A stretch of DNA of 64,000 bases, from IMG/VR virus record IMGVR_UViG_3300025141_000021; one strand, 5' to 3'. Made by a program: the position numbers and the translations under genes. The notes beneath the pieces were generated by a model that worked only from the letters and a program-made list of their open reading frames with translations, was not told the origin of the DNA and ran no database searches. Origin of the DNA: a virus. Of this stretch, positions 1,389 through 43,980 are shown one piece after another. Position 1 is the first letter of the stretch. Each line of letters opens with the position of its first letter.

Positions 1389-2048
1389 TTAGTCTTTTTT
1401 ATTTTTGTTGAATCCGAAGCCTTTTAGCTTTCTGATGGTGTCGTCGGCATTTTTGTGATATATTCCGATTCCGCCGGCTTGTCTCCATGGAACAATGTTT
1501 GTCTGATAGAAATCGTCAATCAAAATTGCATTGGGCTTGGCCCAGCCACTCTTGCCGGGAGGGTTTGGCGCCATAAAAACTTTATTTGGGGTTATCCCTA
1601 AATGTTTTTCCGCCCAAACTCTTTTTCCTTCTTCTGAGCCGGGTTGCTGCGGAGTTGTAAGAAGTATGGGGTTGTACGGCTTAATAAATTCCCACAGTCG
1701 ATCTGCATCCGGCATCTTTGGCAGATTCGCCCAAAACTTTTCATCGTCGCCAACACGTTTTATCATGTAGCTTATGGCATGCCTAATTTTTCCTTCGCTC
1801 TTACCTATGTGTGTCAACGTGATTTCGTCAACCCCGGCTTCTTTTAATGCTTTTCTTAACTTACCCATTCTTGTCATGCCGCCAGTTGGCTTTCTGTCTG
1901 GAATTGACATGTCTTTAAGGTCTTTGTTTATTACTTCTAGCACGGGCGTAACAAAGTCTGCCAACACACCATCCATATCGCAAAATATTTGAAATTCGCC
2001 TTCAGCTTCATTCAAATACTTCCGCCAATTTTCAAGTATTAGTTTCAT
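1389..2048 (-). CDS. HAD-family 5'(3')-nucleotidase with ENW leader
   Basis: FCDMDGVLADF (DxD) and ILIDD motifs; N-terminus MKLILENWRKYLNE. Confidence 0.8.
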   Translation of the reverse strand: MKLILENWRKYLNEAEGEFQIFCDMDGVLADFVTPVLEVINKDLKDMSIPDRKPTGGMTRMGKLRKALKEAGVDEITLTHIGKSEGKIRHAISYMIKRVGDDEKFWANLPKMPDADRLWEFIKPYNPILLTTPQQPGSEEGKRVWAEKHLGITPNKVFMAPNPPGKSGWAKPNAILIDDFYQTNIVPWRQAGGIGIYHKNADDTIRKLKGFGFNKNKKD

Positions 2049-2428
2049 CCTGCACCTCCAAACATTCTCTTAAACACTTCTGGAGTTTCTGGATTATCTA
2101 GATCCAAGATTTTTGCTTTTATACTCTCGACCTTTTGATCTATCGCTTTTTGAAGACGATGATTTCCATCTAGAACAAATCGGTATTGTCCTCCGCTCTT
2201 TACAACGATAACTGGATACTCTAAACTTGCGGCTGCTACTCTTTCTGCTCCGCGTGTTGGCAAAGGCGGCAATTGTTGCGAGAGTTCTAAAACATTAACA
2301 TCAACAGTCTCATCTCCTAGATAATCAACCACATCTCCGATTGTAACTTTTTCATCGTCAGTTTCCCACGATGTATCGCGCCAATCTTCTGTTATATACT
2401 TCCGCCAGTTTTCAAGTAGGAGTTTCAT
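2045..2428 (-). CDS. ParB/Srx-like domain protein with ENW leader
   Basis: YPVIVV...VLDGNHRLQKA ParB-type motif; leader MKLLLENWRKYITE. Confidence 0.7.
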   Translation of the reverse strand: MKLLLENWRKYITEDWRDTSWETDDEKVTIGDVVDYLGDETVDVNVLELSQQLPPLPTRGAERVAAASLEYPVIVVKSGGQYRFVLDGNHRLQKAIDQKVESIKAKILDLDNPETPEVFKRMFGGAG

Positions 2429-3154
2429 TTATTCCTCCACATCGTGTCTCAATCGCTGTGCCACCGAACGCCCCGCAGAAGCAGCCTTTGTCCCTCTTTC
2501 TGACGGTTTGGGTCGGCCTCTGGCTTGCCATTCTTCTGAGCCGGGGCGCCTTGGTTTCTCACCACCAGGATGAGAATATAGCGTCAATAAAATGGCATTC
2601 TTCTCTTCTTTTGGCACAGCGGCCCAAACATCTTCGCCCCATAAATCTTTTACATAACGAATATAGGCGGCGGCATAATTAATGCCTATTTCATCATCAT
2701 CAGCGATAAGTCTTTGCAATTCACCCATGCTCATATCAGGAGAATAGCCGTCTGGTACATAAAGTCCTTTCTCGGATATTTTTTTGGCGGTTTCTCCTTT
2801 AACCTGTCCAATTCCCATTGATGTATTTTTAAGACCTATGTAACCTAATAAATCTCCTAGTGCTCTAGGATACATTCTTATGTACTCATCCATCAGAATT
2901 CCTATTAGCATTTCCGGCTCGATGCCTTGTTTTCTGGCTGCGGCATGTATCTCATTGGTATATTTTTGGAGGTAGCTCCACGCCTCGTCGGCTTTCTCTT
3001 TGTATTCTGAAGCTTCCCCTTCTTCTGGATCTTTCATTGACCAAGATCCGCGAGGCAAACCAAATACTTCGTCAAGTCGCTCTTCGGTTAAATTAAAGTT
3101 TTCACCTCGAACATCTTTTTGGTATCTTCGCCAATTTTCAAATAGTATCTTCAT
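2429..3154 (-). CDS. Lysozyme/transglycosylase-like fold protein with ENW leader
   Basis: AARKQGIEPEMLIGILMDE, SMGIGQV and GINYAAAY resemble SLT motifs; leader MKILFENWRRY. Confidence 0.5.
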   Translation of the reverse strand: MKILFENWRRYQKDVRGENFNLTEERLDEVFGLPRGSWSMKDPEEGEASEYKEKADEAWSYLQKYTNEIHAAARKQGIEPEMLIGILMDEYIRMYPRALGDLLGYIGLKNTSMGIGQVKGETAKKISEKGLYVPDGYSPDMSMGELQRLIADDDEIGINYAAAYIRYVKDLWGEDVWAAVPKEEKNAILLTLYSHPGGEKPRRPGSEEWQARGRPKPSERGTKAASAGRSVAQRLRHDVEE

Positions 3155-3377
3155 TACAATCCTTCCTGTTCTGAGGTGTTCTCTCTTCTAAGTAGTCAAT
3201 AAGTGAGCATATATCCGAACCCAACGGTGGTTTAAAAAAAGGCAAGGCGCCGTGGATCAATTGAGCCCAGGATGAGACCTGAAGTTTAATTGCAACCAAC
3301 AAGGCAACTTTAAAGTGTTCCCAGTAGCCCTCCTTAACTTCGCTAAGGTGGGTTGTTAAAAGCTCTCGCATTTTCAT
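3138..3377 (-). CDS. Small hypothetical protein
   Basis: Likely start MKMRELL at 3377; HLSEVKEGYWEHF...IHGALPF. Confidence 0.55.
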   Translation of the reverse strand: MKMRELLTTHLSEVKEGYWEHFKVALLVAIKLQVSSWAQLIHGALPFFKPPLGSDICSLIDYLEERTPQNRKDCNEDTI

Positions 3378-3393
3378 CACACAGAATCTCCCT

Positions 3394-4560
3394 TTAGGCC
3401 CGGAGGTATACCCTAAGATCATCGAAATTATTTTGGATTTTGCCGCCGTGGACCGCTGTTAATAAATAGTCAAGAATTTCGCCAACTTCCGGACCTCGAT
3501 AACCCAAGCTCATTATATCCTGACCAGTTATATCCAACTCTTTAGCATTAAGGGGAAGACTTAAAGCTTTGTCGGCCCTGGCTGCTTCTTCGGTGAATCC
3601 GGCGGAGTTGAGAACTTTAATTATGAACGGAAGCTTCTCCCGATGATTGGCTGCATACTGTGTTGGTGGTGCTCCAGATATTGCGTCTTGAGCTAGTTGA
3701 AGATACAGTTTCATTTCTCTAGATAAGGGCAGTCGTTCTATATCACCACCGCGAAGGAAAAAAGAAATAAAGTTGCCCAGTACGAGTTCCTCATCTGTGC
3801 TCTGATCAAGTTTAATTGGGATTGGGCGGAATGAGGGTCCAAACAATGTTTCTCCGACACCAGTACCTTTTAATAAATCAACGAGGTGGTCCGAGTCAGC
3901 TAAGCCCTTGGTCCAAGCCTTCGTTAACTCAGCCAGAATTCGCTCGCGAGCAACTAAATCTAGATTCTCCGCATATCTTTCCATCGCCATAGCTGTCTCG
4001 GGCTCAATATCAAATCCGAATCTAACTGCAAATTGAATTGCTCTAAGGATTCGCAGAGGGTCCTCCTTAAACCTTTCCATTGGATTGCCCACGGCTTTAA
4101 TAACTTTATTTTGGATATCTTGAACTCCTCCGAACAAATCGACTATTCTGCCATTTGTATCTTTTGCCAGAGCGTTCATGGTAAAATCTCTGCGACCTAA
4201 GTCATCTTCAATGGGCGCCATAGGGTCGGTAACAATATTGAAGTCCTTGTGCCCGAAGCCAGTGCTCTCTTCTTTTCTGGGTAGCGCAAAGTCAAAGCTT
4301 TCTCCGTCAATAATTGCCGTGACTGTGCCAAAAGCTGCGCCTATCGGCAAAACCTTACCCATAGGTTTTAGTGTTACAATCAATTCATCTAACGGCATGC
4401 CTCGGACCAAAAAATCAACGTCTTTTGATGCGGGCGTATCAGGCATGATCTCATCGCGGACGGCACCGCCAACAATATAAGTTTCTGCTCCGGCAGCTGC
4501 CAGTGTTGATTGAATTTCCTCAACCGTTGCAGGATCGATGGCTTCAATTAAGAGCTTCAT
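3394..4560 (-). CDS. cca: Class II tRNA nucleotidyltransferase (CCA-adding enzyme / poly(A) polymerase family)
   Basis: VGGAVRD, DVDF, DLGRRDFTMNALA and EDPLRILRA motifs; CCA-type C-terminus (LDITGQDIMSLG..GPEVGEIL); no HD domain; truncated leader MKLLIE. Confidence 0.9.
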   Translation of the reverse strand: MKLLIEAIDPATVEEIQSTLAAAGAETYIVGGAVRDEIMPDTPASKDVDFLVRGMPLDELIVTLKPMGKVLPIGAAFGTVTAIIDGESFDFALPRKEESTGFGHKDFNIVTDPMAPIEDDLGRRDFTMNALAKDTNGRIVDLFGGVQDIQNKVIKAVGNPMERFKEDPLRILRAIQFAVRFGFDIEPETAMAMERYAENLDLVARERILAELTKAWTKGLADSDHLVDLLKGTGVGETLFGPSFRPIPIKLDQSTDEELVLGNFISFFLRGGDIERLPLSREMKLYLQLAQDAISGAPPTQYAANHREKLPFIIKVLNSAGFTEEAARADKALSLPLNAKELDITGQDIMSLGYRGPEVGEILDYLLTAVHGGKIQNNFDDLRVYLRA

Positions 4561-5018
4561 CGCACTGAATCTCCCGGGTTGCCAGTTAAGTTTGCAAGAG
4601 AAATATGAAATACGCGATTGGGCTCGGGATCTGGCTCTCCCCCAACCATCTCCATAATTTGATTGATATAAAATCGCATCTCATCTTGGTTCTCTAAGAC
4701 AACAACCCACGACTTTCTCCCTAATTCGTCGTCGGCCCGCTCAGACCATCCACTTTGTATCCTAATATCGGGGGGTTCTGGGAGTTGACCAGCTTGCAAA
4801 AGTCCCTTAAAATGGCTCCTATGGGGCCTTAACACGCTCTGGTGAGCAAGTGTGACGTGTAGGTTCTTATCTTCCATCGGTACTGCTTCTTCTGGCAGCG
4901 TTTTCATCAGCCGATGGAGGTCTTCAATAACTTCTGGCGGTGGAGTAAGTTTTAATATACCTTTGAATTGAATCTCTTCGTTCAGATACTTCCGCCAGTT
5001 TTCAAGTAGGAGTTTCAC
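4557..5018 (-). CDS. 2H phosphoesterase (cyclic phosphodiesterase) with ENW leader
   Basis: Two HxT/S motifs (LHVTL, FHISL) in 153 aa; leader MKLLLENWRKYLNE. Confidence 0.75.
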   Translation of the reverse strand: MKLLLENWRKYLNEEIQFKGILKLTPPPEVIEDLHRLMKTLPEEAVPMEDKNLHVTLAHQSVLRPHRSHFKGLLQAGQLPEPPDIRIQSGWSERADDELGRKSWVVVLENQDEMRFYINQIMEMVGGEPDPEPNRVFHISLANLTGNPGDSVR

Positions 5019-5743
5019 CAGCCACCATCCCCCGGATCAGAACTAAATACTGAGGAGTCAATAATCTTGAAGTTACCGCCCTTGTCAAATCCAATATTGC
5101 CTTTGTCCAGTTCAAACTTATCAATCTCAAATTCGTGCATTGCTTTGCTTAGTTCTTGGTAAGCTCGTCCTGCAACAGGGGGGAGGACTTGTTGAAGCAC
5201 CTCTGCCCGGGCAGCCCAGGTAGCGGCCGAGGCGACTTCGTTAATCGGTCTATCGTCGCGAAAAGATGCCATAATCATCTTCATGACGTGAAAGGGGTCT
5301 GCCGGGTTAAACTGCAGTTCATCGGCGACTTTTAATAAAGCCTCCTGCTCTTTGGGAAAAGATTTATCTAGAACCCTCTGCATTTGACTTGGCCAAGTGA
5401 TTGGAGGCGTGTTTTCCATCACAATCCAAGAAAAATCATCGGAATGTGCATATGCCTTTGGAAAAATGAATGGGTAACGTTTTGCTGTCTCAAAGTCGTC
5501 CTTGTTCATCTGCATTTTATAGTCGTCAGGGTCATGAATAACTTTGATGACATATTCAGGGTCTCCAACGGGCTCATATACTTTGCGAAAAGAGCCACCT
5601 CCGATCTTTTTGAAACGATCAGATTCCACGATGGCTTGGATTTCTTTTAAGTCATCGGTTGCTTGGAATTCTTTAAGCCACGGGAAATGCTCCGCTTCTC
5701 CTTCTGTTATATACTTCCGCCAGTTTTCAAGTAGGAGTTTCAC
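5015..5743 (-). CDS. Protein kinase-like fold protein with ENW leader
   Basis: IGGGSFRKVY G-loop, VIK lysine, ELDKGNIG catalytic-loop-like segment and KIIDS; GTG start. Confidence 0.7.
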   Translation of the reverse strand: MKLLLENWRKYITEGEAEHFPWLKEFQATDDLKEIQAIVESDRFKKIGGGSFRKVYEPVGDPEYVIKVIHDPDDYKMQMNKDDFETAKRYPFIFPKAYAHSDDFSWIVMENTPPITWPSQMQRVLDKSFPKEQEALLKVADELQFNPADPFHVMKMIMASFRDDRPINEVASAATWAARAEVLQQVLPPVAGRAYQELSKAMHEFEIDKFELDKGNIGFDKGGNFKIIDSSVFSSDPGDGGW

Positions 5744-6636
5744 TTGTCACTCCTGTGATATCCCGATCTTTTTTTGCGCAAGCCAATAGCGACTCGGCTT
5801 TGAGGTTCTGATATGTCAGTTGCTGACGACTGCTGAAGGGTCATAAATATTTCTTTTGTCATTGCCATCATCATTCTTACGTCGGCTAACGCGTTATGCC
5901 ACTCGTCCGTACTAACTTCATACGCCGCGGCTACTGGGCCCATTGATGCTGATGTATATTCGCCATATTCGCCCTTCCTGGATAGTGCTTGCAAAATTCT
6001 TTGTGCTCTTTCGTCTCCCTCTTTAGCTAGAGCCTTAATTAGGGGGTGGTGCCACAGCTTAATCAACATCATGGTGTCGAAGATCGGATAGCTTCGAAGA
6101 TTGGCTTTTAACCCATAGAGATCTGCTCTGCCCTGAACGAAGTCTATATCAAATCTGGCATTCTGTGCAACCAATATTGGGTTGGGCTGGCTCTCGATAT
6201 ATGAGATGAATTCCTTTATGACATCAATTTCCTCGGGCATTCCTTTGGGGTACTTCTCTCGGTATTCATCACTTGGCATGCCGTAACGTGTTAATTTTAA
6301 AGGGAATTTTGGATCCTTGCCCTCTGGCGGTGGTTCTTTATAACCCGCTAAAGTTTCCGGAGTTAACTTTATTTTGTCGTAGAACAGCCCTCGCTCAGCC
6401 TCAACCTCAGTAAACTGCCAGTTGTCTGGGTGTGCAGATACTGCACCAATCTCTGTTATCTGCGCAGTATCCGGCTTAAAGCCTGTGGTTTCCGTGTCAA
6501 AGAATATCCAAGTACTATCACCAAAAGCCTTGAGCATTTCAAATAGCGATTCAATCGAGGACTCAAAAAAGTCATCGTTCAAGATATATGCTTCTTTAAG
6601 CATATACTTTCTCCAGTTTTCAAATAGAAGTTTCAT
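5740..6636 (-). CDS. DEDDh 3'-5' exonuclease (DnaQ-like) with ENW leader
   Basis: FFDTETTG, AQNARFD and HNALAD motifs; leader MKLLFENWRKYMLKE. Confidence 0.85.
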   Translation of the reverse strand: MKLLFENWRKYMLKEAYILNDDFFESSIESLFEMLKAFGDSTWIFFDTETTGFKPDTAQITEIGAVSAHPDNWQFTEVEAERGLFYDKIKLTPETLAGYKEPPPEGKDPKFPLKLTRYGMPSDEYREKYPKGMPEEIDVIKEFISYIESQPNPILVAQNARFDIDFVQGRADLYGLKANLRSYPIFDTMMLIKLWHHPLIKALAKEGDERAQRILQALSRKGEYGEYTSASMGPVAAAYEVSTDEWHNALADVRMMMAMTKEIFMTLQQSSATDISEPQSRVAIGLRKKRSGYHRSDK

Positions 6637-6857
6637 TAGTTTTCATATTCGCCGGCGCCGGGATCGGTTAAATAGTTCACGCGCAAAACTATATTTTTAG
6701 TTTTAACATCTGCCATCATTGTAATTAAATCATTTGCTACAACAGCGGTTAGCTCATCTTGAGAAAGTATAAGTTCTCCCCCCTCCTTCTTAACAATTGC
6801 TGTTAGCAATACGAGAAGATATTTTGCATCGCCTAAATAACTCCTTTTTTTTGACAT
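6636..6857 (-). CDS. Small hypothetical protein
   Basis: 73-aa ORF coupled by 1-nt overlaps to both neighbours. Confidence 0.6.
   Translation of the reverse strand: MSKKRSYLGDAKYLLVLLTAIVKKEGGELILSQDELTAVVANDLITMMADVKTKNIVLRVNYLTDPGAGEYEN
6669..6676 (-). promoter_or_regulatory. Putative late-promoter motif ACTATTTA
   Basis: Same motif as upstream of structural genes; 33 nt before the exonuclease start. Confidence 0.45.
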
Positions 6858-7357
6858 CAGTTACTCCATCCCATTCCTGCTCTTTGGCCTGGAGATTCGT
6901 GGCTGTCAAGCCACTCAAGCGCCTTTTGCAAAGAACTCCTAAGGCCGGGAACACTATCATATTGTTCTATTTCTTCCATCGCAACCCACGCAAAGTCGTC
7001 ATTTTCATAATCTAGTGTTACGTCTCCTGTAAACTCTCTTGTGGCATAAAAATGAATATCGGCCAAATCGTCTTTGCCCTCCATTTGAATTGTCTCTACC
7101 GATACCAAGCCCACACTCCCAAGGTCTAGGCTAGTTTCTTCTTTTGTTTCTCGCCTCATGCCTTCTTCCGCTGTCTCGCCCTCTTCAACGTGGCCGCCGA
7201 CCAAACTCCATTTTCCCGGCATCCAACTGGTGCCTTTGGCGCGCCTAAGAATTAAAGTTTTATTCTGGGAATCAAATATGGCTATCTTCGCAAGTTTAGT
7301 TTTCTCTTCCTCTTGCTCATTTATAAAATGGTGCCAGTTTTCGAAAAGTCGTTTCAT
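6857..7357 (-). CDS. Nudix hydrolase with ENW leader
   Basis: Nudix box GGHVEEGETAEEGMRRETKEET; leader MKRLFENWHHFINE. Confidence 0.88.
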   Translation of the reverse strand: MKRLFENWHHFINEQEEEKTKLAKIAIFDSQNKTLILRRAKGTSWMPGKWSLVGGHVEEGETAEEGMRRETKEETSLDLGSVGLVSVETIQMEGKDDLADIHFYATREFTGDVTLDYENDDFAWVAMEEIEQYDSVPGLRSSLQKALEWLDSHESPGQRAGMGWSN

Positions 7358-9666
7358 GAGTTAATAAAATCTCTCCAATTATTTTGTATGTTTTCTTGCA
7401 AGCTTCTGCGCTTTCTTCCCCACGCATCTTTCTCGCTGTCGCTCAACACTTCTTCAGCAACTCGGATCGCCATGGCCTGTACAGCCTTGGGGCTGACAGT
7501 AAGAACAACTGCGAGCATTGTATTAACAACATCGTCAGGGTCGTCACCAGTAACTTCAAACTCAAGCTCAAACTCTCCTGACTTGATGGCGCTTGATCCT
7601 CCTGTGGAATCTTCAGTGTCCTGGATCCACGTATTCGGGTAGGAGGGCCCACCCACTTTAGCATACTCCATATATTCTGAACCGGAATCAAGGGCGGCCT
7701 CAATTATTTCCTCTCGGAGTCTAATTTTAAATTCGCGGTAGCGGTTCTCTGGGATCGGCGGGACCTTTAGTCCCTCCAACTTTGCATTAACGTGACCGGG
7801 CATGTATTCATCATCGGTTGCAACTTCCCAGCCAGTAGTTCTAAATTCGTCAGTCCCAACATCTTGAGCTAAGTTAAGTATAGCGCCGCCATCCATGATC
7901 CCTTCGCGGCGGAGATATGTCTTGATCTCGGCATGGTAAGCTAGGTACGCCGAAATGAGTTGGTCCTGCATCATCGACAACAGTTCTTCATATTCATCTG
8001 GGCTGGTGAGGTAGCCGGTTACAGTAAAGCCATTGTCGGCAGACATTAAGTTTTCCTTATCGAACTCCATCTCGATTACAACATTTTCTCCCTCTTTTCT
8101 TATATAAGATCGCCCCTCTTCAAACAGATTAATCCCCATGTCACTAAAGTGAGTGCCCAAATATTCCATAGCGGGATAAGCGTTGTGTGGTAATTGTTTA
8201 AACTCATCTAGGGGATAGAGAAATTGCATCGAAGCGTTCACATCAATATAAGCTGATCCGGCGCCGTCGTCTTCTGCATTGGCAGCTACGAGAATCCTTC
8301 TAAAGTCATTAACCTTGAACGTCGGGCGATAGTCATTTTGAAGCCCCTGTATGGCTTGCTCAAATTCCGATACGGTGTTCATACCGATTCTAGATTTAAC
8401 TTCTTCCTCTGGCTCGTGATAAGTTCTCGGGTGCCCATCAAATTTCAGATCCGGCAGCCACCTTTTAAATAGGCTATCAAGCGGAGTGTCGGTGTACGTG
8501 CCCCCAACGAGCGAGAAGTCGTCAAGCAAAATGACAGTACCATCACCAGTGCGCGGTAAGTCCTTCATCTTGTCTTCCTGCTTTGTCTTCAACCAATCCC
8601 TAATCTCATCTCGGAATCCACCGATGTCCGGTCCATATACTCTTTCCTCTGGGACAGCCAGTTGACCAGCCCACTCGCGTGTATTGCGACTGAGAGACCC
8701 TTTCTTTGGATATACAAACTTCCGGATCCTAACTCTCGCGATTGGCTCTATGCCTTCAACGCCTCTTCTTTTGTCTGCAAAAAGCTCTTCATCGTCCCAC
8801 TCAGAAAACTTCCCACCTCCTAGCGGGCCCTCAACAAATTCACCCAACTGTACTAGATTGACGAGGTAGGCTATAGCTCCGTGACCGTGAGCCTCTGTCA
8901 CCGCACAGGCATAGTATTCTCCACCACCCCTGGACGTTGGAGAGTGACAGGACTGGATATGTTCATAGTCCGACATTCTGAGTATGTCTATCGGATGTCG
9001 CGAGAGAACAATTGCCAAAGGCTTTGACTTACCCCCGGATTGCCCCCAGGTGTCTAGCATCTCTTGTGCGTGTGCAGTGCCAACTCCGGACCCAAAATAT
9101 GACCCGGCAAAGTCATACACTTCGCCCTCGGCCTTCTCGGCTGCGTCGTAATCAATCGCGTTAGTGCCGGGCTTTGGCGTCCACTTGGCTTTTTCTGCTT
9201 TCTCCTTGAGCCTCTTATATTTTGTCAGGAACTTACCGATCTTCATTTGCTGGGTTTTAAACTTCCAGCCTTCTTTTTCAAGCTTTGCTCGATGTTCTTT
9301 GTTCGCCTTCTCAAAGCTCTTATTAAGCGGCACGGGCATCCAAATTGGGCGATCTTCTTCCGTCATGCCGGGGTTGCTCCAGATTTCTCGTCTCATCATT
9401 CCGGTGTCGAAGTCAATCTCCCAGGAACCGGGCTGGTTGGGTCTGTATGTCATGCGGTTGGCAAAGTCCTGGAGGCGGCGAGGCATTAACTTCTTGTCAA
9501 ATGGAATTAAAACTCGCATGCTTGACCCGAATAGGTGTTCGAACGGAAGATCATCTTCCTTCATGTCTGTCAAGAAGTCAGCGATATGCTCAAATTCTTC
9601 CTCGTCTATCTCGCGGAGGAGCGTGGGCTCATCCCTAAATTTTTTCCATGCGTCGTGAAATGTCAT
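7354..9666 (-). CDS. Large acidic protein, paralog of 9663..12743
   Basis: Shared block SRHPID(I/V)LRMSD...SCHS...CAV.EA.GHG.IAYLV...RRGVEGI...RVR.RKF. Confidence 0.75.
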   Translation of the reverse strand: MTFHDAWKKFRDEPTLLREIDEEEFEHIADFLTDMKEDDLPFEHLFGSSMRVLIPFDKKLMPRRLQDFANRMTYRPNQPGSWEIDFDTGMMRREIWSNPGMTEEDRPIWMPVPLNKSFEKANKEHRAKLEKEGWKFKTQQMKIGKFLTKYKRLKEKAEKAKWTPKPGTNAIDYDAAEKAEGEVYDFAGSYFGSGVGTAHAQEMLDTWGQSGGKSKPLAIVLSRHPIDILRMSDYEHIQSCHSPTSRGGGEYYACAVTEAHGHGAIAYLVNLVQLGEFVEGPLGGGKFSEWDDEELFADKRRGVEGIEPIARVRIRKFVYPKKGSLSRNTREWAGQLAVPEERVYGPDIGGFRDEIRDWLKTKQEDKMKDLPRTGDGTVILLDDFSLVGGTYTDTPLDSLFKRWLPDLKFDGHPRTYHEPEEEVKSRIGMNTVSEFEQAIQGLQNDYRPTFKVNDFRRILVAANAEDDGAGSAYIDVNASMQFLYPLDEFKQLPHNAYPAMEYLGTHFSDMGINLFEEGRSYIRKEGENVVIEMEFDKENLMSADNGFTVTGYLTSPDEYEELLSMMQDQLISAYLAYHAEIKTYLRREGIMDGGAILNLAQDVGTDEFRTTGWEVATDDEYMPGHVNAKLEGLKVPPIPENRYREFKIRLREEIIEAALDSGSEYMEYAKVGGPSYPNTWIQDTEDSTGGSSAIKSGEFELEFEVTGDDPDDVVNTMLAVVLTVSPKAVQAMAIRVAEEVLSDSEKDAWGRKRRSLQENIQNNWRDFINS

Positions 9667-12600
9667 GCGTTCAGGCTCTTCAGTACTGCTCGTCTAATTG
9701 CCTCTCTCAATACCTTCTCGGGTATGGCTCGCCTGTGTTCCTTCAGGCCTATCACGTTAAACACATCAGTATACCATGCCGGTGGCTTTATAGTTGACGG
9801 CTTCGTACTCATGATCTGCGCAGGGTCGAGACTACTGCGGTCTTGGTCCTCAATGGCAACGGTGCGATCAGTCTGCGCATCGTACCAGTATTTTTCCAAG
9901 CCTGCTGCAAACATAAATCGCTGGTGGACTCTCACAGCCGCGCCACTGAGGTCTAAGTCAATAAAATCTTTCGTAAATATCGTCAGGGTCTCAAATTGAT
10001 GTTTCGGATCTATGCCAAGATCGTGAAACCGACCGAAGTGCCACCTATTCGGAGCTTCGGTATACATAGCGTTTGACAATTCTATCATTTCGGAGACAGG
10101 TGCGTCTGCAATTTTGGCGATCTCTTCTCCCAAATTTTTAAGTCTCTCGGCAGCTTGAGCCCGCGGCGAGTCGGGAGTGAAACTGAGCATGCCCGCTGCC
10201 TCTTTTGAGACTATCTCAGCGCTCTTTTTAAGCTCTCCTCGCCAGTGTACGATCCTTGTAACCCTCTCGTCCCAAAGACCGGCTGCAACGAAGCCCTTAG
10301 CAAAGTCAATCAGATCGTCGATAGGCATTTCTTTTAGGTGCTTTGATATTTCTTCTCTTGTGGGAAGTTTAGCTTCAAGCTCTCTCCTGACTTTCGTCTC
10401 GTCCATCAGCGGCTTCATAGCTCTTCTTGCTGCTGCGAAAACATCATCCATGTGCTTGTCGACATATTCAACAAACTTTGATACAGCCTGGATTTGCACA
10501 TCTGTTGCCTCTGGAGTAATATCAAGCTCCATCCGCAGGAGCAGCCACATCTCTGAGGTGCTAGCGTCGAATCTTTCCGGCAAAGATATAGTGAGGATTG
10601 CTTCGAATTTGCCAGTCTTACTCTTTCTCTTCGTTAGCAGTGGCAGGCTCAAAACTTTATCGGCTGCAGCCATTTCAACGCCGGGGAGGGTTAGCTGCTT
10701 GTGTGCGTATTCCTGCGCTGCGGCTTCAAGTTTCTGAAGCTCCTTTGTCATGTTCTTATAAAAGCTCGGTGACCAAGAGGTGCGAGGATTATAGTCCTGG
10801 ATAGGATACTTTAATTCTGAGTGAACTCTTTGGTTTGTCTGTGCCAACTTAAGTCGCGGCGAATAGCCGGTATTAAATATGATGCTACGGCTCTCTACAT
10901 CGTAGTCCCAGTGTTCATACTCTGGCTCTTCTTCTTCTAGCTGCGCCGCCTTGACATCAAAGGGTTGGGGCGATATATATTCTAGCTTAACCAATGCCTT
11001 GCGGACTGCCTCTACGATATCTTCATGTTCGCCATCATATTCTCTCTCGATCCAGTCAATAAATTGTTCTAGATCGTCGGGCGTTCCACCGTAATCGTCG
11101 CGAGGGATATCAAAGTTAAAACTCACGGTGGATCCCCAGTGATTAATATTCATATCCTCGAAATGAATGTACAAATTCATATCATCAATTATACTTTCTA
11201 TGGTATCTTTGATTTGGACGGTAGTTTGCCAATCATCAAAACCGGGATGTTCGTCTTCAAACATGCTATCTGGAAATTCGACACCGTATGTTGCGCTCAT
11301 CATAACATATGGTTCCCCAGCATCCACCTCATCCACCTCGGCATAGACGGAAGCATGCTTCAGGTTGTTGTTGGCATAATCTGTAAGTTCCTCGACACGC
11401 TGCTCGTACTCATCCCAAAGACCCTCGTCTTCTTCCTCATCGGGGCCGTTAACGTCTGAACCGTCGTAGTAGTCTGCATCGACTCCCATCTTCTCAAAAA
11501 ACTTGTTGAGCGCTTCGCCATCTCTGGTATCACCGTAGGAACCGCCGTGACGGTACAGATCCGTAAACTCCGGCGCTACGAGATCTCCATCATCATTCGC
11601 TACAAAATACTTCTTCTGATTTTCGGCAGCCCACTCGCGAACAAAGCTGACAAAGCCTGGAATCTTTCTGCCGTAGGTTCTGCTTTCTGGTGCTACGAAG
11701 ACAACACCGCTGTCAGTGTCTTCAAATTTTCTTAGTCGGACCCGCTGAGTGGCACCAATGCCCTCGACTCCGCGTCGTGAGTCTCTAAAAATTTCTTTGT
11801 CGTCAAAATCCGAAATGTCTTTCGTCGTGATGGTGTCTGCAACATCTGCATCATAACCGTATGGTGCGTCTGTCAAAAAATTCTCCAAGTCATTGGTCGC
11901 GACGAGGTAGGCAATCGGACCATGACCTTTTGCTTCTGCGACGGCACACTTAAAGTGGCTGCTACCTTCAGAATGACAAGAGCTAATGGAGTCAATATCA
12001 CTCATGCGAAGCACATCAATCGGGTGCCGCGAGATAATAACTGACATGTCTCCAACAGGCTCACGTTCGTAGGCCGCGTTGCTAAAAACTCTGGCAACCT
12101 GCCTCCAGTTCTGCTCTTTAGTATAAAAAGTTTGTTTCTTCTGCCACCACTCTTTCAGGCGGGGTTCAATATCTTTTGACTTATTAATAGCCCTAGATAT
12201 TGTTGTTTGTTCTGTTTTTTGAATTTCCTGGCCGGCCTTTGGGCCCTTGGGGATTACCTTTGTTGTAGTTTTCTTGAGGTTCAACTTTGCGATAACCTCG
12301 TTCTCTTCATATTCTTCACCAGTTTCTAGGCGCCTTTTCTTTTGCTTAACCAGTTCTATCGGAAATTGCTCGCCCTGCAAATACGACACCCCCATGGTCG
12401 ACATAATCTCAAGCTCATCGCCGCTCGGTTCTTTCTGCTGAGATTTGTCTGGTTGCCAGCCTTCATGATGAAGCTGCCAAATGATGTCCGCGAGGTTCTT
12501 ATCGTCACTTGATTCTAGCGGCAAAGCAATACGCATGGCGCCACCGAAAAGCTCATCAAAATCGTAGTCTGTGATTTCCTTGTCTGACATCCAATCATAA

Positions 12601-12743
12601 ATTTTTTCAGCGGCATCTGTAGAAATCTCGTTTAAAATTTCTAGCTTTTCTTGTAGAATTGCCTTCTTCTTTTTTAGATCATTGTGAACTTTAATTTTAT
12701 TCTGAAATTGTTGCCACTTGGGCATAAAATCATTCATGGACAT
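9663..12743 (-). CDS. Large acidic protein, paralog of 7354..9666
   Basis: 1026 aa; same conserved block; GTGA/ATGA-type coupling to the downstream gene. Confidence 0.75.
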   Translation of the reverse strand: MSMNDFMPKWQQFQNKIKVHNDLKKKKAILQEKLEILNEISTDAAEKIYDWMSDKEITDYDFDELFGGAMRIALPLESSDDKNLADIIWQLHHEGWQPDKSQQKEPSGDELEIMSTMGVSYLQGEQFPIELVKQKKRRLETGEEYEENEVIAKLNLKKTTTKVIPKGPKAGQEIQKTEQTTISRAINKSKDIEPRLKEWWQKKQTFYTKEQNWRQVARVFSNAAYEREPVGDMSVIISRHPIDVLRMSDIDSISSCHSEGSSHFKCAVAEAKGHGPIAYLVATNDLENFLTDAPYGYDADVADTITTKDISDFDDKEIFRDSRRGVEGIGATQRVRLRKFEDTDSGVVFVAPESRTYGRKIPGFVSFVREWAAENQKKYFVANDDGDLVAPEFTDLYRHGGSYGDTRDGEALNKFFEKMGVDADYYDGSDVNGPDEEEDEGLWDEYEQRVEELTDYANNNLKHASVYAEVDEVDAGEPYVMMSATYGVEFPDSMFEDEHPGFDDWQTTVQIKDTIESIIDDMNLYIHFEDMNINHWGSTVSFNFDIPRDDYGGTPDDLEQFIDWIEREYDGEHEDIVEAVRKALVKLEYISPQPFDVKAAQLEEEEPEYEHWDYDVESRSIIFNTGYSPRLKLAQTNQRVHSELKYPIQDYNPRTSWSPSFYKNMTKELQKLEAAAQEYAHKQLTLPGVEMAAADKVLSLPLLTKRKSKTGKFEAILTISLPERFDASTSEMWLLLRMELDITPEATDVQIQAVSKFVEYVDKHMDDVFAAARRAMKPLMDETKVRRELEAKLPTREEISKHLKEMPIDDLIDFAKGFVAAGLWDERVTRIVHWRGELKKSAEIVSKEAAGMLSFTPDSPRAQAAERLKNLGEEIAKIADAPVSEMIELSNAMYTEAPNRWHFGRFHDLGIDPKHQFETLTIFTKDFIDLDLSGAAVRVHQRFMFAAGLEKYWYDAQTDRTVAIEDQDRSSLDPAQIMSTKPSTIKPPAWYTDVFNVIGLKEHRRAIPEKVLREAIRRAVLKSLNA

Positions 12744-12765: not shown

Positions 12766-12773
12766 TAATTAGT
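12766..12773 (-). promoter_or_regulatory. Putative late-promoter motif ACTAATTA heading the leader-bearing array
   Basis: Intergenic, 23 nt upstream of the 12743 start and just past a terminator. Confidence 0.55.
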
Positions 12774-12785: not shown

Positions 12786-12811
12786 AAAAGGGCGCCCGAA
12801 GGCGCCCTTTT
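12786..12811 (-). terminator. Intrinsic terminator with cUUCGg tetraloop
   Basis: AAAAGGGCGCC-TTCG-GGCGCCCTTTT downstream of hsp20. Confidence 0.88.
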
Positions 12812-12833: not shown

Positions 12834-13280
12834 TTACTTAACTTCAACGCGGTGGGAAATAGTAGCCTTAGTATTGACCTTCGGTACTACGATAGACAGT
12901 ATACCTTGATCATACTTGGCAGAAATGTCTGACGCCTTGATATCCTGTGGCAGATTCCAAGTTCGCTTAAAAGAGTGGTAAGAAACAACACTGTTGTTAT
13001 CTTCCTTGGCTTCATATGAAATAGTTAGCGTCGTATCACCAACATCAACGACAATGTCGTTCTTATCTAGGCCCGGAATAACGACATCAATTCGATGATC
13101 GGTGTCAGACGTTGTAACGTTAGTCTTAATTCCGGTTTTATGCGTGTCATTGAAAAACGCATTCAAAATCGGGGAAAACCCCCAATCGTCTTCGAAGAAA
13201 TTGTCAAAGAAATTCTTCATTGCAGTGTGACGGTTGTGGCCGTCGACTACGGAGCCATTGCTCCTAATAACTGGATACAT
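12834..13280 (-). CDS. Small heat shock protein (Hsp20/alpha-crystallin)
   Basis: DVVIPGLDKNDI...SFKRTWNLP...ISAKYDQGILSIVVPK. Confidence 0.9.
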   Translation of the reverse strand: MYPVIRSNGSVVDGHNRHTAMKNFFDNFFEDDWGFSPILNAFFNDTHKTGIKTNVTTSDTDHRIDVVIPGLDKNDIVVDVGDTTLTISYEAKEDNNSVVSYHSFKRTWNLPQDIKASDISAKYDQGILSIVVPKVNTKATISHRVEVK

Positions 13281-15446: not shown

Positions 15447-15482
15447 CGCACGTTTCTCCTACACGTTATAACTTAAATAGTA

Positions 15483-17075
15483 TCAATCTTCTACAATTGC
15501 ATGCGATGTTGTAATTAATATTGAAGCGACCGACGCAGCGTTCTGTAATGCCGATCTCGTAACTTTCAAAGGATCAATAATTCCAGCAACATACATATTT
15601 ACCATCTTTTGATTAACAAAATCATAGCCAAAATTTAGCTTATTTTTTTTGCTTACCAAACTTAAAACAATATCTGGACTCAGCCCTGCGTTTAGTGCCA
15701 TTTGTGATATTGGCGCCTTGACGGCGCTTTTAATAATTTCTACTCCAAGTTGTTGGGTATCATTATCAACCTCCACCTTTAACGATTTGACAGCATGCAC
15801 CAGGGCAGCGCCTCCCCCTGGAAGCATTCCCTCTTCTTGTGCCGCACGAACGGCCTCAAGAGCATCTTCGATTCGGTGTTTCTTCTCGACCATTTCAATT
15901 TCTGTGGCTGCGCCGACTTTAATTATGGCAACACCGCTGGCTAGTCTTGTGATACGCTCCTGGGCTTGGGCCGCTAAATGTCCTGCGCCGCCGTCTGTGT
16001 TATTTGCCTGGTCTGATTGAGATATCTCCTCTTTAAGGCTTTCAATTCTCTCCTCAATTTTTTCATAATTGCCGCGGCCACCAACAACAATTGTTCCAAA
16101 CTTAGAAATTTCAATCGTCTTTGCGGTGCCAAGATGTTCAAGTGTTACGCTGCGAATATCGGTACCCTCTTCTCTGGTAAGAAAAGTTGCACCAACAGAT
16201 AAAGCCAGATCGCTTAATATTTTCTTTCTCTCTTCTCCATAGCGCGGAGCTTTAATAGCCGCAACCTTCATCGTGCCGCGAACAGAATTCATTATGAGCG
16301 CTGCTAGCGCCTGTCCCTCGACCACCTCAGCAATAATTATAAATGGCCGGCCATCCCTAGCAGCAACTTCTAAAACTGGAAGCATCTGCTCAATTGTTTC
16401 AACTTTATGGTCGGTTATCAATAATAAAGGATCGTCATATTTAATTATACTTCGACGCTCATCTGTAACAAACGCGGCGGCGGTATAACCAGAATCAAGT
16501 TTAAACCCCTCTATTAAATCAAGGCTTGTATCTAAAGACTTGGCCTCCTCCACAGTGATCGATCCATCTTTTCCAACTTGATCGACTGCTGTCGCAATTA
16601 ATTTTCCGATATCACTATCCCCATTTGCAGATATTGTCGCAATATGTTCAATATCCTCAATTGTTGAAACTAATTTGGACTGGCCTTTGAGATTCTCAAC
16701 AATTACTTTAACAGCTTTATCAATGCCTCGTTTGAGTTCTATTGGTGAAGCCTCTGCCATTAAATATTTGCGTGCCTCTTTCAATATAGCCCGGGCCAAC
16801 ACTGTTGCGGTTGTTGTTCCATCGCCGGCGACAAGATTTGTTTGTGAAGACGCTTGTTTTAAAATTTGCACGCCGGCATTTTTAATTGGATCTTCCAATT
16901 CTATAAATTCTGCGACGGTCACACCATCTTTTGTAACAACTGGATTTCTGTCTTTTGGTTTTAATATTACGTTTCTGCCACGCGGGCCTAGGGTCGATGC
17001 GACATTGTCTGCTAATATATCAATTCCCTCTAATAGCCTTTGGCTTAGGCTGGCGCCTTTGTCATAATACTTCAC
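15483..17075 (-). CDS. groEL: Chaperonin GroEL (phage-encoded)
   Basis: TLGPRGRNV, VTKDGVTVA, GDGTTTA, RLASGVAIIKVGA and IIDPLKV motifs. Confidence 0.96.
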   Translation of the reverse strand: MKYYDKGASLSQRLLEGIDILADNVASTLGPRGRNVILKPKDRNPVVTKDGVTVAEFIELEDPIKNAGVQILKQASSQTNLVAGDGTTTATVLARAILKEARKYLMAEASPIELKRGIDKAVKVIVENLKGQSKLVSTIEDIEHIATISANGDSDIGKLIATAVDQVGKDGSITVEEAKSLDTSLDLIEGFKLDSGYTAAAFVTDERRSIIKYDDPLLLITDHKVETIEQMLPVLEVAARDGRPFIIIAEVVEGQALAALIMNSVRGTMKVAAIKAPRYGEERKKILSDLALSVGATFLTREEGTDIRSVTLEHLGTAKTIEISKFGTIVVGGRGNYEKIEERIESLKEEISQSDQANNTDGGAGHLAAQAQERITRLASGVAIIKVGAATEIEMVEKKHRIEDALEAVRAAQEEGMLPGGGAALVHAVKSLKVEVDNDTQQLGVEIIKSAVKAPISQMALNAGLSPDIVLSLVSKKNKLNFGYDFVNQKMVNMYVAGIIDPLKVTRSALQNAASVASILITTSHAIVED

Positions 17076-36563: not shown

Positions 36564-37340
36564 CTATTGATGAATTGACATTTTTCTATCATATGCGTTT
36601 CGTTTGATATCGTTTAGCTTAGCAAGATAATCTTCGCGGCGCAGAACTTTAAATGCGAGATTTTCAACCGAAAACGCGCCACCGGTTTCTAGCCCGGTTT
36701 TCCTCATTCTTCGAATTTTGTCTTTCAGCCTTTCGACGGAACTTATCGCCAAATCATGTTCTTCTTCATCAAAAAGATCTTCAATTCGATCTATTTCGTC
36801 CATTAGGCCGGCTGCTTTGAGTCTTATTTGAGATTCGTCAAAATCTTCAACACTTCGCGAAGGGCGCAAAATCCACGCATCGCTCATAATTGAATAAAGG
36901 CCCGTGGATGCATGTGGTTCCGTGTTGTCTTGTACATAAAGCTCAACTTCAAAACCGTGAATCTCTATCTGATGTTCTCTGTTCCAAAGGGCGCGCTTAG
37001 CATTTAAGTATTCGCGTACCAAATCCTCATTTTCATCAACTTGGGCGTAATCTACAATAATGTGTAAATCAATGTCCGAAAACCTCGACCAGTTATAATT
37101 TGCCAGCGATCCGGTCAAAACAATATCTAATGTGTCGACCCATGGAATTGCAAGCCATTGCCAAAAATCTTCTACTATTTCAAGTAAATTTTTGACGATT
37201 TCGGGATTCATCTTTTCGTTATTGTCAACCCATACCTTTTGGTTTAAGTCATCCTGAACTTCGAAACTGGAAAGGTCTATAGCATCAGGATCGACATCCT
37301 CCTGTACGTATTTCTGCCAGTTTTCAATTAGGGCCCTCAT
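36564..37340 (-). CDS. Pol-beta-superfamily nucleotidyltransferase with ENW leader
   Basis: LTGSLANYNW..SDIDLH...ELYVQD; probable start MRALIENWQKYVQE at 37340 (ATGA overlap). Confidence 0.78.
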   Translation of the reverse strand: MRALIENWQKYVQEDVDPDAIDLSSFEVQDDLNQKVWVDNNEKMNPEIVKNLLEIVEDFWQWLAIPWVDTLDIVLTGSLANYNWSRFSDIDLHIIVDYAQVDENEDLVREYLNAKRALWNREHQIEIHGFEVELYVQDNTEPHASTGLYSIMSDAWILRPSRSVEDFDESQIRLKAAGLMDEIDRIEDLFDEEEHDLAISSVERLKDKIRRMRKTGLETGGAFSVENLAFKVLRREDYLAKLNDIKRNAYDRKMSIHQ

Positions 37341-38506
37341 ACGTTTGGGTTTCCAAGCATTATTTTTAGTTCGTCTTTGCGGCCGGATACGCTTCTGGTA
37401 TACCAGCCATTGTATTCTGAATATTTCTCTTCTGGATGATCGCCAAGCCAATTAATTGGTTTGTTAGACCCAAGGACCTTTTGAACTGTTTCTGGATCAC
37501 CAACAAAAGGAACGCCATATCTCGTAATCATGATGTGTGCAATTGCTTTTGACATTTCTGCGTAATATCCGGGCTCATATAATAATTCTGCAGTTTTTTC
37601 TAGATACGCAGTTTTCGCACTTTTAGAGCCATCATGTCCAGAACCAGTCAATTTGACGCCATGGGGAGTTTTTTTACCAAATCGAACAGCGTCAGGGTCT
37701 GGATCGTCATCAACATCTGTGGCTATCCATTCATCATGATCAGCCGGTACATCTGAAGCTTTTTTGAAATCAAAATGGCCTCCTATTTTTGAATAGGCCG
37801 TATCAATAAGACCATATATTTCATCCGTTAAATCGACATTTTTTGGGTCATATTCAAAATCTCCTGTTGGAATGTCGACCCACTTATTCTTTGGAGCTTC
37901 ATAGTCAGCAAAAACTTTTTCGCTCAAATCGATATTTTCTGATAATTCTTGACCCAAAGATCTCATGGTTGCTTTCTTGACTATTCCTGATTTTCCAATA
38001 GCAGCTGCAGCGGTACCCAAATTTAAATCACCAGCGCTGCGATCAGTTCCAGCAGAGCCGGCAACAGTTCGGTCATTAAAAATTGTTTTTAATTCATTTT
38101 CAAGCCAGTCATTGATATTCCAACCAGCTGGAATTTGTTCATTCGGTGACTGCTTTGATATTAAATCAGACAGGCGATTAAGTAGTGTATTTTCAACTCT
38201 GTCATCAATTAATTTAGAATATTCATCATCAACGTTAAACATATCTAAAAATGGAAATTTATCAGTTTTCTGATCCGGTAATTTGCCAACATTCTTTATA
38301 AGGCCTTTAATACCGCCAGCCGCCCTGATAAAATCTACAATTGCGTTACCACCGAGAAGTCGACTAGCTATCCCCGCAACTTCTGAGCCCTTTTTTGCTA
38401 GCAAAACTGTGTCTAAAACCTTTTTTAGCTCGCCCCAGGTGTCTTCGGTTATAATTTCTTCTTGATAGCCACGCCAATTCTCCATTAACACTTTCATATC
38501 AGACAT
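37337..38506 (-). CDS. Two-domain hypothetical protein with ENW leader
   Basis: MSDMKVLMENWRGYQEEIITE; late motif at 38527-38534. Confidence 0.7.
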   Translation of the reverse strand: MSDMKVLMENWRGYQEEIITEDTWGELKKVLDTVLLAKKGSEVAGIASRLLGGNAIVDFIRAAGGIKGLIKNVGKLPDQKTDKFPFLDMFNVDDEYSKLIDDRVENTLLNRLSDLISKQSPNEQIPAGWNINDWLENELKTIFNDRTVAGSAGTDRSAGDLNLGTAAAAIGKSGIVKKATMRSLGQELSENIDLSEKVFADYEAPKNKWVDIPTGDFEYDPKNVDLTDEIYGLIDTAYSKIGGHFDFKKASDVPADHDEWIATDVDDDPDPDAVRFGKKTPHGVKLTGSGHDGSKSAKTAYLEKTAELLYEPGYYAEMSKAIAHIMITRYGVPFVGDPETVQKVLGSNKPINWLGDHPEEKYSEYNGWYTRSVSGRKDELKIMLGNPNV

Positions 38507-38529
38507 ATGTGAAACCCCTATACGTATAA

Positions 38530-43962: not shown

Positions 43963-43980
43963 TCCCGTGGATAATAATAT

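Follow-up and report, generated by a model that had tools for sequence, protein, structure and literature searches.

In phage T4, a few small internal proteins and Alt are known to carry a capsid-targeting sequence (CTS); all of them are front-line anti-restriction and takeover factors. For IPI-III, this sequence is M-K-T-Y-Q-E-F-I-A-E, and gp21, the prohead protease, removes it (Mullaney and Black 1996, as cited in PMC5694885 and PMC3012670). From Alt, gp21 removes both an N-terminal (I-T-E-6) and a C-terminal (L-T-E-619) propeptide (PMC5694885). In the phiKZ-like giants (SPN3US, phiKZ), propeptides of ejection or inner-body proteins are cut at A/S/G-x-E by a gp21-related protease, and many head-internal proteins are processed after Glu, including paralog pairs with identical N-termini (PMC5694885). 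We checked the CTS in the T4 genome (NC_000866): ipII and ipIII indeed show M-K, Glu6, an aromatic residue and then I-A-E. The leader DNA is identical within the pairs ipII/ipIII and alt/alt.-1, and gp21 itself starts ...L-L-I-E-T-W.

The DNA analysed here is a stretch of 64,000 nt (hereafter the window), in which 11 otherwise unrelated proteins carry a peptide that we call the ENW tag: nine have a clear leader and two large paralogs have degenerate copies. Like the T4 CTS, the tag is a short N-terminal peptide on otherwise unrelated proteins: it starts with M-K, an aromatic residue comes after Glu6, and (I/L)-x-E forms its end. As in T4, there are gp21, a gp22-like scaffold and a gp23-like capsid protein in the lineage, the leaders of one genome are partly homogenised at the DNA level, and the tagged set differs greatly between relatives. 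However, the T4 CTS has 10 residues and the ENW tag 14, with an invariant E-N-W that is missing in T4. In place of a few small internal proteins, the ENW tag marks at least 92 protein clusters, including many enzymes, and its motif doubles as a C-terminal module. It is the layout alone that the two have in common, with no alignable homology; 10-14 residues are too short for a significant alignment. The phiKZ-like phages have no single address peptide common to dozens of unrelated enzymes, and their cleavage rule and lineage are different. In our opinion, the balance tips slightly towards a capsid-targeting role: the 14-residue peptide would be a propeptide specific to one lineage, a large group of uncultured marine T4-like myophages.

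The leader and the genes that carry it

A six-frame search of the window with the expression E-N-W-(R/Q/H)-x-(Y/F) returns nine matches, each at codons 6-11 of a minus-strand ORF, which bears out the claim of an earlier, sequence-only reading that at least nine unrelated proteins have such a leader. The start codons are at 2048, 2428, 3154, 5018 (GTG), 5743 (GTG), 6636, 7357, 37340 and 38497, the last with an alternative three codons upstream at 38506. Seven of these ORFs do lie in the range 1389-12743 first assigned to the system, while two are outside it. With a degenerate leader pattern, the DNA of the window gives six matches versus 0.00 expected from 100 shuffles. Over the nine ORFs the consensus of 14 residues is M-K-(L)-(L/I)-(L/M/F)-E-N-W-(R/N/K)-x-(F/Y)-(L/I/V)-x-E. 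It had been said that most leaders end in (L/I/V)-x-E, and seven of the nine do so at residues 12-14 or 13-15 (LNE, ITE, LNE, ITE, LKE, INE, VQE); of the other two, the muramidase-like protein has Q-K-D instead and the 386-aa protein Q-E-E, with I-T-E further on at 18-20. The features are as follows.

12766..12773, minus strand: promoter-like motif ACTAATTA, 23 nt ahead of the gene that opens the array
9663..12743, minus strand: 1026-aa protein of the family tagged at both ends, degenerate leader W10-Q-Q-F
7354..9666, minus strand: its 770-aa paralog, degenerate N-terminal leader W7-K-K-F, then L-L-R-E
6857..7357, minus strand: tagged Nudix hydrolase (domain match), leader end I-N-E
6636-6857: untagged 73-aa ORF, contains ACTATTTA
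5740..6636, minus strand: tagged DEDDh (RNase T-like) exonuclease (domain match)
5015..5743, minus strand: tagged protein-kinase-like protein, GTG start, leader end I-T-E, kinase motifs by eye
4557..5018, minus strand: tagged putative 2H phosphoesterase, GTG start, two H-x-T/S motifs by eye
3394..4560, minus strand: CCA-adding tRNA nucleotidyltransferase, cca (domain match), with the first half of the tag only, M-K-L-L-I-E
2429..3154, minus strand: tagged Tse3-like muramidase candidate (weak Tse3-type match, E 0.002)
2045..2428, minus strand: tagged small ParB/Srx-like protein (weak ParB match, E 0.069)
1389..2048, minus strand: tagged HAD-type 5'(3')-deoxyribonucleotidase (domain match)
36564..37340, minus strand: tagged nucleotidyltransferase (phrog_36119), leader M-R-A-L-I-E-N-W...V-Q-E
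37337..38506, minus strand: tagged protein of 386-389 aa

The two paralogs are the first two genes of the operon. The last two genes of the list (36564-37340 and 37337..38506) form a tagged island within the replication block; in the six-frame scan, no replication or nucleotide-synthesis gene of the window carries the motif, and in this respect the original reading was correct. It was also right about cca, where M-K-L-L-I-E alone is present (start 4560). Its domain calls are confirmed by database matches for the nucleotidase, the Nudix hydrolase, the DEDDh exonuclease, the nucleotidyltransferase and the CCA enzyme. The lysozyme-like and ParB-like calls stand on the weak E values given above, and the 2H and kinase-like calls on motifs seen by eye: the putative 2H phosphoesterase has no database match, and the sole match of the kinase-like protein is a PHROG of unknown function. 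Housekeeping-type enzymes, e.g. the nucleotidase, are unusual as capsid cargo, which is a counterpoint to packaging.

Promoter-like motifs and the family tagged at both ends

The sigma70-driven Hsp20 gene runs into a strong terminator hairpin (12786-12811), directly after which comes ACTAATTA. Further copies of this class, ACTAHTTA, are found 33 nt upstream of the exonuclease gene (ACTATTTA, within the 73-aa ORF), 35 nt upstream of the muramidase candidate (ACTACTTA) and 21 nt upstream of the gene for the 386-389-aa protein (a second ACTAATTA, 38527-38534). Altogether the window has 16 copies versus 6.7 expected. On the minus strand, 11 of 15 are placed 17-69 nt upstream of starts, six of these before structural, late or unassigned genes and five before array or tagged genes. 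Replication genes of the window have no copy before them, and sigma70-like promoters are found instead at three of them or more (helicase-like 35112-36503, 40115-40519, SSB 44498-45247). In about 70 relatives a motif of the ACTAHTTA class lies upstream of the homologous structural gene, and we assume from this association with structural genes that the class is late. The earlier suggestion that tagged and structural genes share the motif is correct within the window; across the IMG/VR loci, 19% of tagged genes and 14% of other ORFs are preceded by it, hardly a difference.

The large paralogs belong to a family of proteins of about 800 residues that has the motif at both ends, is present in 311 contigs and is new in this analysis. 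In the 1026-aa protein, L-N-E at residues 37-39 marks the start of homology to the 770-aa paralog; the latter ends (about 7357-7407) in S-L-Q-E and then a second copy of the motif, N-N-W-R-D-F-I. A variant of the leader is at the N-terminus of nearly all of 120 homologs. An alignment of 30 sequences shows L-L-R-E after it, the E being invariant (E19 in the 770-aa protein) and the first L (L17) conserved in at least 90%. The C-terminal motif is present in 74 of the 120, and 63 of these 74 have (L/I/V/M)-x-E at most 22 residues upstream of it, compared with a background of 36%. In an AF2 model of the 770-aa protein, the terminal helices (3-12 and 756-769) are on low-pLDDT linkers, and these hold the (L/I/V/M)-x-E sites. 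According to the model, each terminal copy is joined to the body of the protein by a flexible linker with such a site.

The family has features in common with T4 Alt: its members are large proteins with removable-looking segments at both ends, each delimited by (L/I/V/M)-x-E on a flexible linker, and some relatives encode them among structural genes. In three loci (L020, L029, L034) an ENW-tagged homolog of about 810 aa lies between an MCP-proximal gene and the neck and sheath genes, starting 3 nt after the preceding stop; usually the family is found away from structural genes. Alt is a packaged and injected ADP-ribosyltransferase; no signature of such an enzyme was seen in the family, whose core domain gave no sequence match in Pfam, PHROG or PDB and only weak GNAT-like rows (Z at most 4.3) in fold searches. 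In Alt, moreover, the two propeptides do not repeat a single motif.

Spread of the tag and head machinery of relatives

The tag occurs in at least 119 IMG/VR contigs. After its removal, 144 tagged proteins fall into 92 BLAST clusters, hence at least 92 unrelated clusters, and the proteins range from 60 to over 1000 aa. Cell-wall hydrolases (M23, Amidase_2, Tse3-like) are among them, as they are among known ejection proteins. Prokaryote genomes, where the tag is nearly absent, give 42 pattern matches, most of them in ORFs of less than 40 aa; only 14 of the 42, real ORFs in MAG contigs, have the (L/I/V/M)-x-E ending. In 5000 ORFs of the fetched loci, a set biased by the choice of these loci, the core motif is N-terminal in 214 cases, C-terminal in 68 and internal in 33. 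Shorter variants keep only a W-x-x-F-L-x-E core, and the nucleotidyltransferase family has different leaders in other lineages (Maribacter phage Molly, a 635-kb phage). We found no cultured phage, virion proteome or N-terminal protein sequence with the ENW tag.

Over 153 leaders every synonymous codon family is in use (six codons for Leu3; both CGN and AGR for Arg9), and the 30 nt upstream have at most 0.5 bit per position. Since synonymous sites are variable and the DNA upstream lacks conservation, the tag is under selection as a peptide rather than as DNA. The ending (L/I/V/M)-x-E, of the type that T4 gp21 cuts, is present at residues 12-14 in 118 of 151 distinct leaders, an agreement with the protease rule that is partly built in, since L-L-E within this motif, a Leu/Glu-rich helix, is itself an L-x-E; conservation stops sharply at residue 14, and the ending was not imposed by the DNA search pattern, which constrained residues 1-11 only.

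Peptidase_S77 (gp21; PF03420) is encoded in all five long ENW contigs. No head protease is found in the 64,000 nt of the window, which ends inside the MCP gene; in its relatives (e.g. L130) the gene order is portal, protease, scaffold, MCP. The delta domain of the relatives' MCP aligns to T4 gp23 and ends in L-L-R-E where T4 has L-T-E. A phage GroEL is likewise present in each of the five long ENW genomes; thus the co-occurrence with the protease does not discriminate, both being traits of the lineage. The scaffold protein of these phages has a conserved C-terminal peptide, D-R-W-K-x-L-A-G-I.

Explanations of the tag

The idea of a T4-style address tag had been put forward in the original reading. 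Every sequence-level prediction of it that was checked held, namely conservation at the peptide level, the (L/I/V/M)-x-E boundary, at least 92 clusters with a near-restriction to viruses, a gp21-type protease and a T4-type head module in relatives, and, in the window, a promoter-like motif common to tagged and structural genes that replication genes lack; the interpretation itself is partly supported. Tagged proteins would be made from a promoter class that also serves structural genes. The amphipathic helix, with its core W-(R/K)-x-(F/Y)-(L/I), would then dock them into the scaffold core while the prohead assembles, the gp21-type head protease would cut after the (L/I/V/M)-x-E that bounds the tag, and the mature enzymes would be retained by the head until they pass into the cell together with the DNA. 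We infer docking, cleavage, packaging and delivery of the tagged proteins, and with them a library of enzymes delivered at infection. In the window, the cargo would be a kit for RNA and nucleotide handling and for the cell wall (Nudix hydrolase, exonuclease, 2H esterase, kinase-like protein, nucleotidase, nucleotidyltransferase, muramidase), together with two copies of the conserved ~800-aa protein, tagged at both ends as T4 Alt is.

A bolder form of this idea, which we regard as doubtful, is that the W-(R/K)-x-(F/Y)-(L/I) helix, perhaps copying the scaffold peptide D-R-W-K-x-L-A-G-I, acts at either end of a protein as a portable and cleavable 'sticker', with which a whole lineage of T4-like ocean phages loads an enzyme repertoire of at least 90 families into capsids as a counter-defence kit. 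The repertoire, large and fast-changing, would include RNA-repair and nucleotide enzymes, a SAM lyase and cell-wall hydrolases, which would act as an immediate counter-defence on delivery. As a copy of the scaffold peptide, the tag would be a reprogrammable natural cargo-loading system.

It is also possible, though in our view unlikely, that the tag is a docking helix unrelated to capsids, which brings enzymes into a cytoplasmic complex or condensate (e.g. with the ~800-aa protein as a hub) or hands them over to the phage GroEL or Hsp20. The motif is indeed a short amphipathic helix that is found at either terminus, members of the two-ended family have tagged neighbours across the lineage (at -2 in 53%, at +1 in 28%), GroEL is in every one of the long ENW genomes, and the array of the window has Hsp20 and GroEL just upstream of it. 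However, this explanation accounts neither for the (L/I/V/M)-x-E boundary nor for the presence of such sites on the body side of both terminal copies, and the supposed hub was not detected in three of the five long ENW genomes. Tagged proteins reach 770-1100 aa, and the size limit of the GroEL cage is generally taken to be below this; Hsp20 is set apart from the array by the terminator and a different promoter type.

A role of the tag in degradation or regulation, e.g. as an N-terminal degron that a host AAA+ protease reads to limit the lifetime of the enzymes, seems very improbable to us. The tag is terminal and exposed, and its M-K-(hydrophobic)3-x5-(hydrophobic) start agrees with a published, loosely defined ClpX N-terminal recognition class, but we know of no degron that contains the invariant E-N-W or the (L/I/V/M)-x-E ending, and a C-terminal copy with a cleavage-type site upstream would be left unexplained. 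We give still less credence to a membrane or envelope-targeting helix that places enzymes at the inner membrane: L4, L5, W8, Y/F11 and L12 do share one helix face and part of the cargo acts on the cell wall, but most of it consists of nucleotide or RNA enzymes, which have no reason to be at a membrane, the helix is short with two or three acidic residues, and the flanking cleavage-type sites again find no explanation. Finally, the view that the leader is mainly a DNA recombination joint for swapping gene cassettes, its peptide having little function, can draw on 30 identical nt in three window leaders and 42 in two, on a synonymous codon identity of 0.67-0.68 within a genome versus 0.56 between genomes (a modest excess that may partly be codon usage) and on the identical leaders of the T4 pairs, but it is hardly credible when across the lineage amino acids are fixed with synonymous sites free and upstream DNA unconserved, and when the motif also exists at C-termini and as the W-x-x-F-L-x-E core; moreover, recombination at the tag is compatible with targeting, and in T4 both go together.

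If the tag is indeed a capsid-targeting propeptide, dozens of different enzymes are injected alongside the DNA of an abundant ocean phage group, which would change the view of the first minute of infection and of phage counter-defence. The first 14 residues would then give a location, if not a function, to much of the 'viral dark matter', and foreign proteins could be packed into T4-type capsids with a second natural tag, which is longer and can be placed at either terminus.

The ENW leader in the window and in other viruses

The claim of the sequence-only reading, that at least nine unrelated window proteins share an N-terminal leader which mostly ends in (L/I/V)-x-E, holds. In a six-frame scan of the window, E-N-W-(R/Q/H)-x-(Y/F) is found nine times, in each case as residues 6-11 of an ORF; the 14-residue leader (the ENW tag), searched as a degenerate DNA pattern, has six matches against 0.00 expected in shuffles, and (L/I/V)-x-E closes seven of the nine leaders. 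The minus strand is the coding strand for all window genes, and two of the nine tagged ORFs start with GTG.

Tagged genes of the window
1389-12743, minus strand: array, an operon of tagged genes headed by the ORF at 9663-12743
36564-37340 and 37337-38506, minus strand: tagged island
2048, 2428, 3154, 5018, 5743, 6636, 7357, 37340, 38497, minus strand: start codons of the tagged ORFs (six-frame scan)

The DNA 5' of the tagged start codons shows no relatedness, and neighbouring genes abut or overlap, so the repeat runs from the start codon to about 14 codons on. The cca gene retains only M-K-L-L-I-E of the leader. Of the enzyme identities proposed earlier, five are confirmed by Pfam and PHROGs (nucleotidase, Nudix, DEDDh exonuclease, nucleotidyltransferase and CCA enzyme). 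The 'lysozyme-like' protein matches the Tse3 muramidase weakly, and the ParB-like assignment of a small tagged protein is weak. With nine canonical leaders, against one to five in each of the five long ENW-bearing IMG/VR contigs, the window is unusually rich.

A search pattern that fixed residues 1-11 only matches at least 166 sites on at least 119 IMG/VR contigs, nearly all at ORF starts. The matches listed hold 151 distinct leaders: 136 of them have L/I/V/M at position 12 and 120 have Glu at position 14, and beyond position 14 conservation collapses. Synonymous sites in the leader vary freely and the 30 nt upstream are not conserved; hence selection acts on the peptide. Once stripped of the tag, 144 proteins among the matches listed form at least 92 BLAST clusters. 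The few with a Pfam match include 'Swiss-army-knife' RNA-repair HAD domains, Nudix, GNAT, tRNA-ligase-type phosphodiesterase, SAM lyase, Peptidase_M23, Amidase_2 and nucleotidase.

Prokaryote genomes (596 Gb) served as an internal control. The same pattern has 42 matches there, mostly in ORFs of less than 40 aa, and only 14 of the 42, all of them real ORFs in MAG contigs, have the L-x-E ending; the tag is therefore essentially confined to viruses. Two complete ENW-tagged ORFs (loci L226 and L236) lie in the 2.8-Mb MAG chromosome of a WOR-3 bacterium (CP070664.1); they could come from a piece of phage DNA that was mis-binned, or from an integrated element, and might be a clue to the host.

Searches of 50,697 phage records gave no match to the array (megablast), to a 22-aa leader peptide or to a common tagged HAD protein (both tblastn), and a literature string search for the motif returned spurious matches only and no description of it. 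The ENW tag is absent from cargo homologs in Pelagibacter phage HTVC008M and Synechococcus phage S-CRM01, and the window's nucleotidyltransferase family bears different leaders in other phage lineages. In the cultured flavobacterial phage Maribacter phage Molly_1 (locus L127, NC_062751 9667-18362), at least five adjacent genes, including a homolog of the window's tagged nucleotidyltransferase, have another common leader, …L-K-(S/T)-L-(V/I)-E-(S/T)…; Molly_1 may be a cultured system suited to the study of leader tags.

A family with the motif at both ends

The ORFs at 7354-9666 (770 aa) and 9663-12743 (1026 aa) are paralogs (E 4e-34), both homologous to an ENW-tagged protein of about 810 aa at locus L029. 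Their family, the 800-aa family, comprises at least 125 clusters on 311 IMG/VR contigs and has no annotation. One of two leader forms, the canonical one or x-F-H-N-N-W-R-K-F-L-x-E, opens almost all members. An alignment of 30 sequences shows L-L-R-E after the leader; every sequence has the E, and at least 90% have the first L. The motif is also C-terminal in 74 of 120 members, and in 63 of these 74 an (L/I/V/M)-x-E lies at most 22 residues upstream of it, against 36% at random positions. The AF2 model of the 770-aa protein (pLDDT 78.9) predicts a helix for the motif at each terminus, on linkers of low confidence in which (L/I/V/M)-x-E sites lie. A precedent for such two-ended segments is T4 Alt, from each end of which gp21, the T4 head protease, cuts a propeptide (PMC5694885).

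In 5000 ORFs from the loci retrieved, a set biased by locus choice, 282 copies of the core motif are terminal and 33 internal. C-terminal copies also occur in a few proteins that do not belong to the family (loci L065, L083, L053, L064 and L109), for example as ...L-F-E-N-W-R-G-F-L-K-E-D before the stop; C-terminal tagging concerns more than one family.

At loci L020, L029 and L034, the gene for the ~810-aa homolog has a capsid-proximal gene on one side and the genes for neck and sheath on the other; among relatives, the gene of this family mostly lies away from structural genes, flanked by other leader-bearing genes. The idea that the family is an obligatory receptor (hub) is weakened, as it was not detected in three of the five long ENW genomes. 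As to the 770-aa protein itself, it has no Pfam or PHROG match, nothing in a PDB profile search, no PDB match below E 0.001 for the whole model (Foldseek), and no close relative in IMG/VR by exact peptides. Its core domain gives weak GNAT-like rows only (VIA-align, Z at most 4.3), its ESM Atlas matches are viral hypothetical proteins only, and its BFVD matches are uncharacterised proteins of 480-900 aa, those with a named source coming from jumbo phages (Atu_ph07, Dickeya JA29).

Head module and promoters

The tail sheath of the window phage is distantly T4-like. The window breaks off inside the major capsid gene and its own head protease is not within the window; relatives at 55-64% identity have the order terminase, portal, protease, scaffold, capsid, and all five long ENW contigs encode a Peptidase_S77 (the gp21 family). 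The capsid propeptide can be aligned with its T4 gp23 counterpart and ends in L-L-R-E where T4 has L-T-E; M-S-K-L-L-L-R-E-Y-Y, at the start of the protease, aligns with ...L-L-I-E-T-W of T4 gp21. Scaffold homologs contain 5.5% (L/I/V/M)-x-E against about 2.2% in ordinary proteins, an excess that is largely compositional. The scaffold proteins (L130:7137-8129 and 29 homologs, alignment A3) have a conserved C-terminal D-R-(W/M)-K-x-L-A-G-I, loosely like the tag core W-(R/K)-x-F-L; judging from this likeness, the tag may mimic the scaffold's own shell-binding end. A complex prediction for the scaffold (30-row alignment) and residues 1-40 of the tagged 2H protein scored 0.00, which speaks neither for nor against binding. 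In T4 (64000-67500, L335), ipII and ipIII, which bear capsid-targeting sequences, adjoin e (lysozyme) and nudE (Nudix), enzyme types that in the window themselves bear the tag.

ACTAHTTA occurs 16 times in the window against 6.7 expected, 15 times on the coding strand, and 11 of these 15 copies are 17-69 nt upstream of starts.

ACTAHTTA in the window
Before non-array genes: capsid-adjacent gene (start 63523), sheath, tube, two unassigned genes (starts 55983 and 15446), 228-aa gene
Before array or tagged genes: array head, exonuclease, muramidase, 94-aa ORF, two-gene tagged island in the replication block
Example sites: 63540-63547, 57715-57722, 15474-15481, 12766-12773, 38527-38534

About 70 relatives have conserved the motif in front of the homologous structural gene; it is strand-specific and promoter-like, with a timing that we infer. 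The array start has no sigma70-like site, ACTAATTA standing 23 nt before the first ATG, whereas at least three replication genes (helicase-like 35112-36503, 40115-40519 and the SSB gene) have sigma70-like promoters instead. The earlier suggestion that structural and tagged genes share a motif is supported by the window (11 sites); in the IMG/VR loci, however, ACTAHTTA is no commoner before tagged than before other genes. The T4 late promoter TATAAATA, from which ACTAHTTA differs, is not enriched in the window, nor is CTATTTAW alone, and TTTATATA has only two coding-strand copies.

The phage encodes a GroEL-type chaperonin (15483-17075) and an Hsp20 (12834-13280), the gene of the latter lying upstream of the array with a perfect TTGACA-16-TATAAT sigma70 promoter and a strong terminator. 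Each of the five long IMG/VR genomes with the ENW tag also encodes GroEL; an entire lineage of marine T4-like phages therefore carries a chaperonin of its own. Two neighbouring intergenic regions (43864-43980 and 44431-44497) have a common hairpin element of about 30 nt, GAGGCAC-AGGGTTATCAG-GTGYCTC. A trypsin-like protease with a membrane anchor and a sigma70-like promoter of its own adjoins a protein with a long (E-V/P-V) repeat (2-499 and 436-1263); both are untagged.

What the tag may do

In our opinion, the simplest account, and one that we hold to be somewhat probable, is that the ENW tag is a form, specific to the lineage, of the capsid-targeting propeptide known from T4. The terminal helix would dock the tagged proteins in the core of the prohead, and the head protease would then cut the helix off at the (L/I/V/M)-x-E that bounds it. 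The four alternatives that we considered all leave unexplained why both terminal copies have boundaries of the cleavage type. A docking tag for something other than the capsid, possibly tied to the phage GroEL, is favoured by the presence of that chaperonin in all five long genomes, yet we find it unlikely. A degron seems to us very improbable, and a membrane-targeting helix a little more so. Leader synonymous sites are somewhat more alike within a genome (0.67) than between genomes (0.56), and the leader DNA of T4 ipII/ipIII and of alt/alt.-1 is identical; on these grounds the tag DNA may double as a recombination joint, but that it is purely such a joint is the least credible of all.

Returning to the capsid-targeting propeptide, several findings would agree with a tag that serves as an interchangeable address label for proteins required when the phage enters the cell: the different leaders on one nucleotidyltransferase family, the tagging of cell-wall hydrolases and very large proteins, and the leaning of the cargo towards RNA repair and nucleotides.
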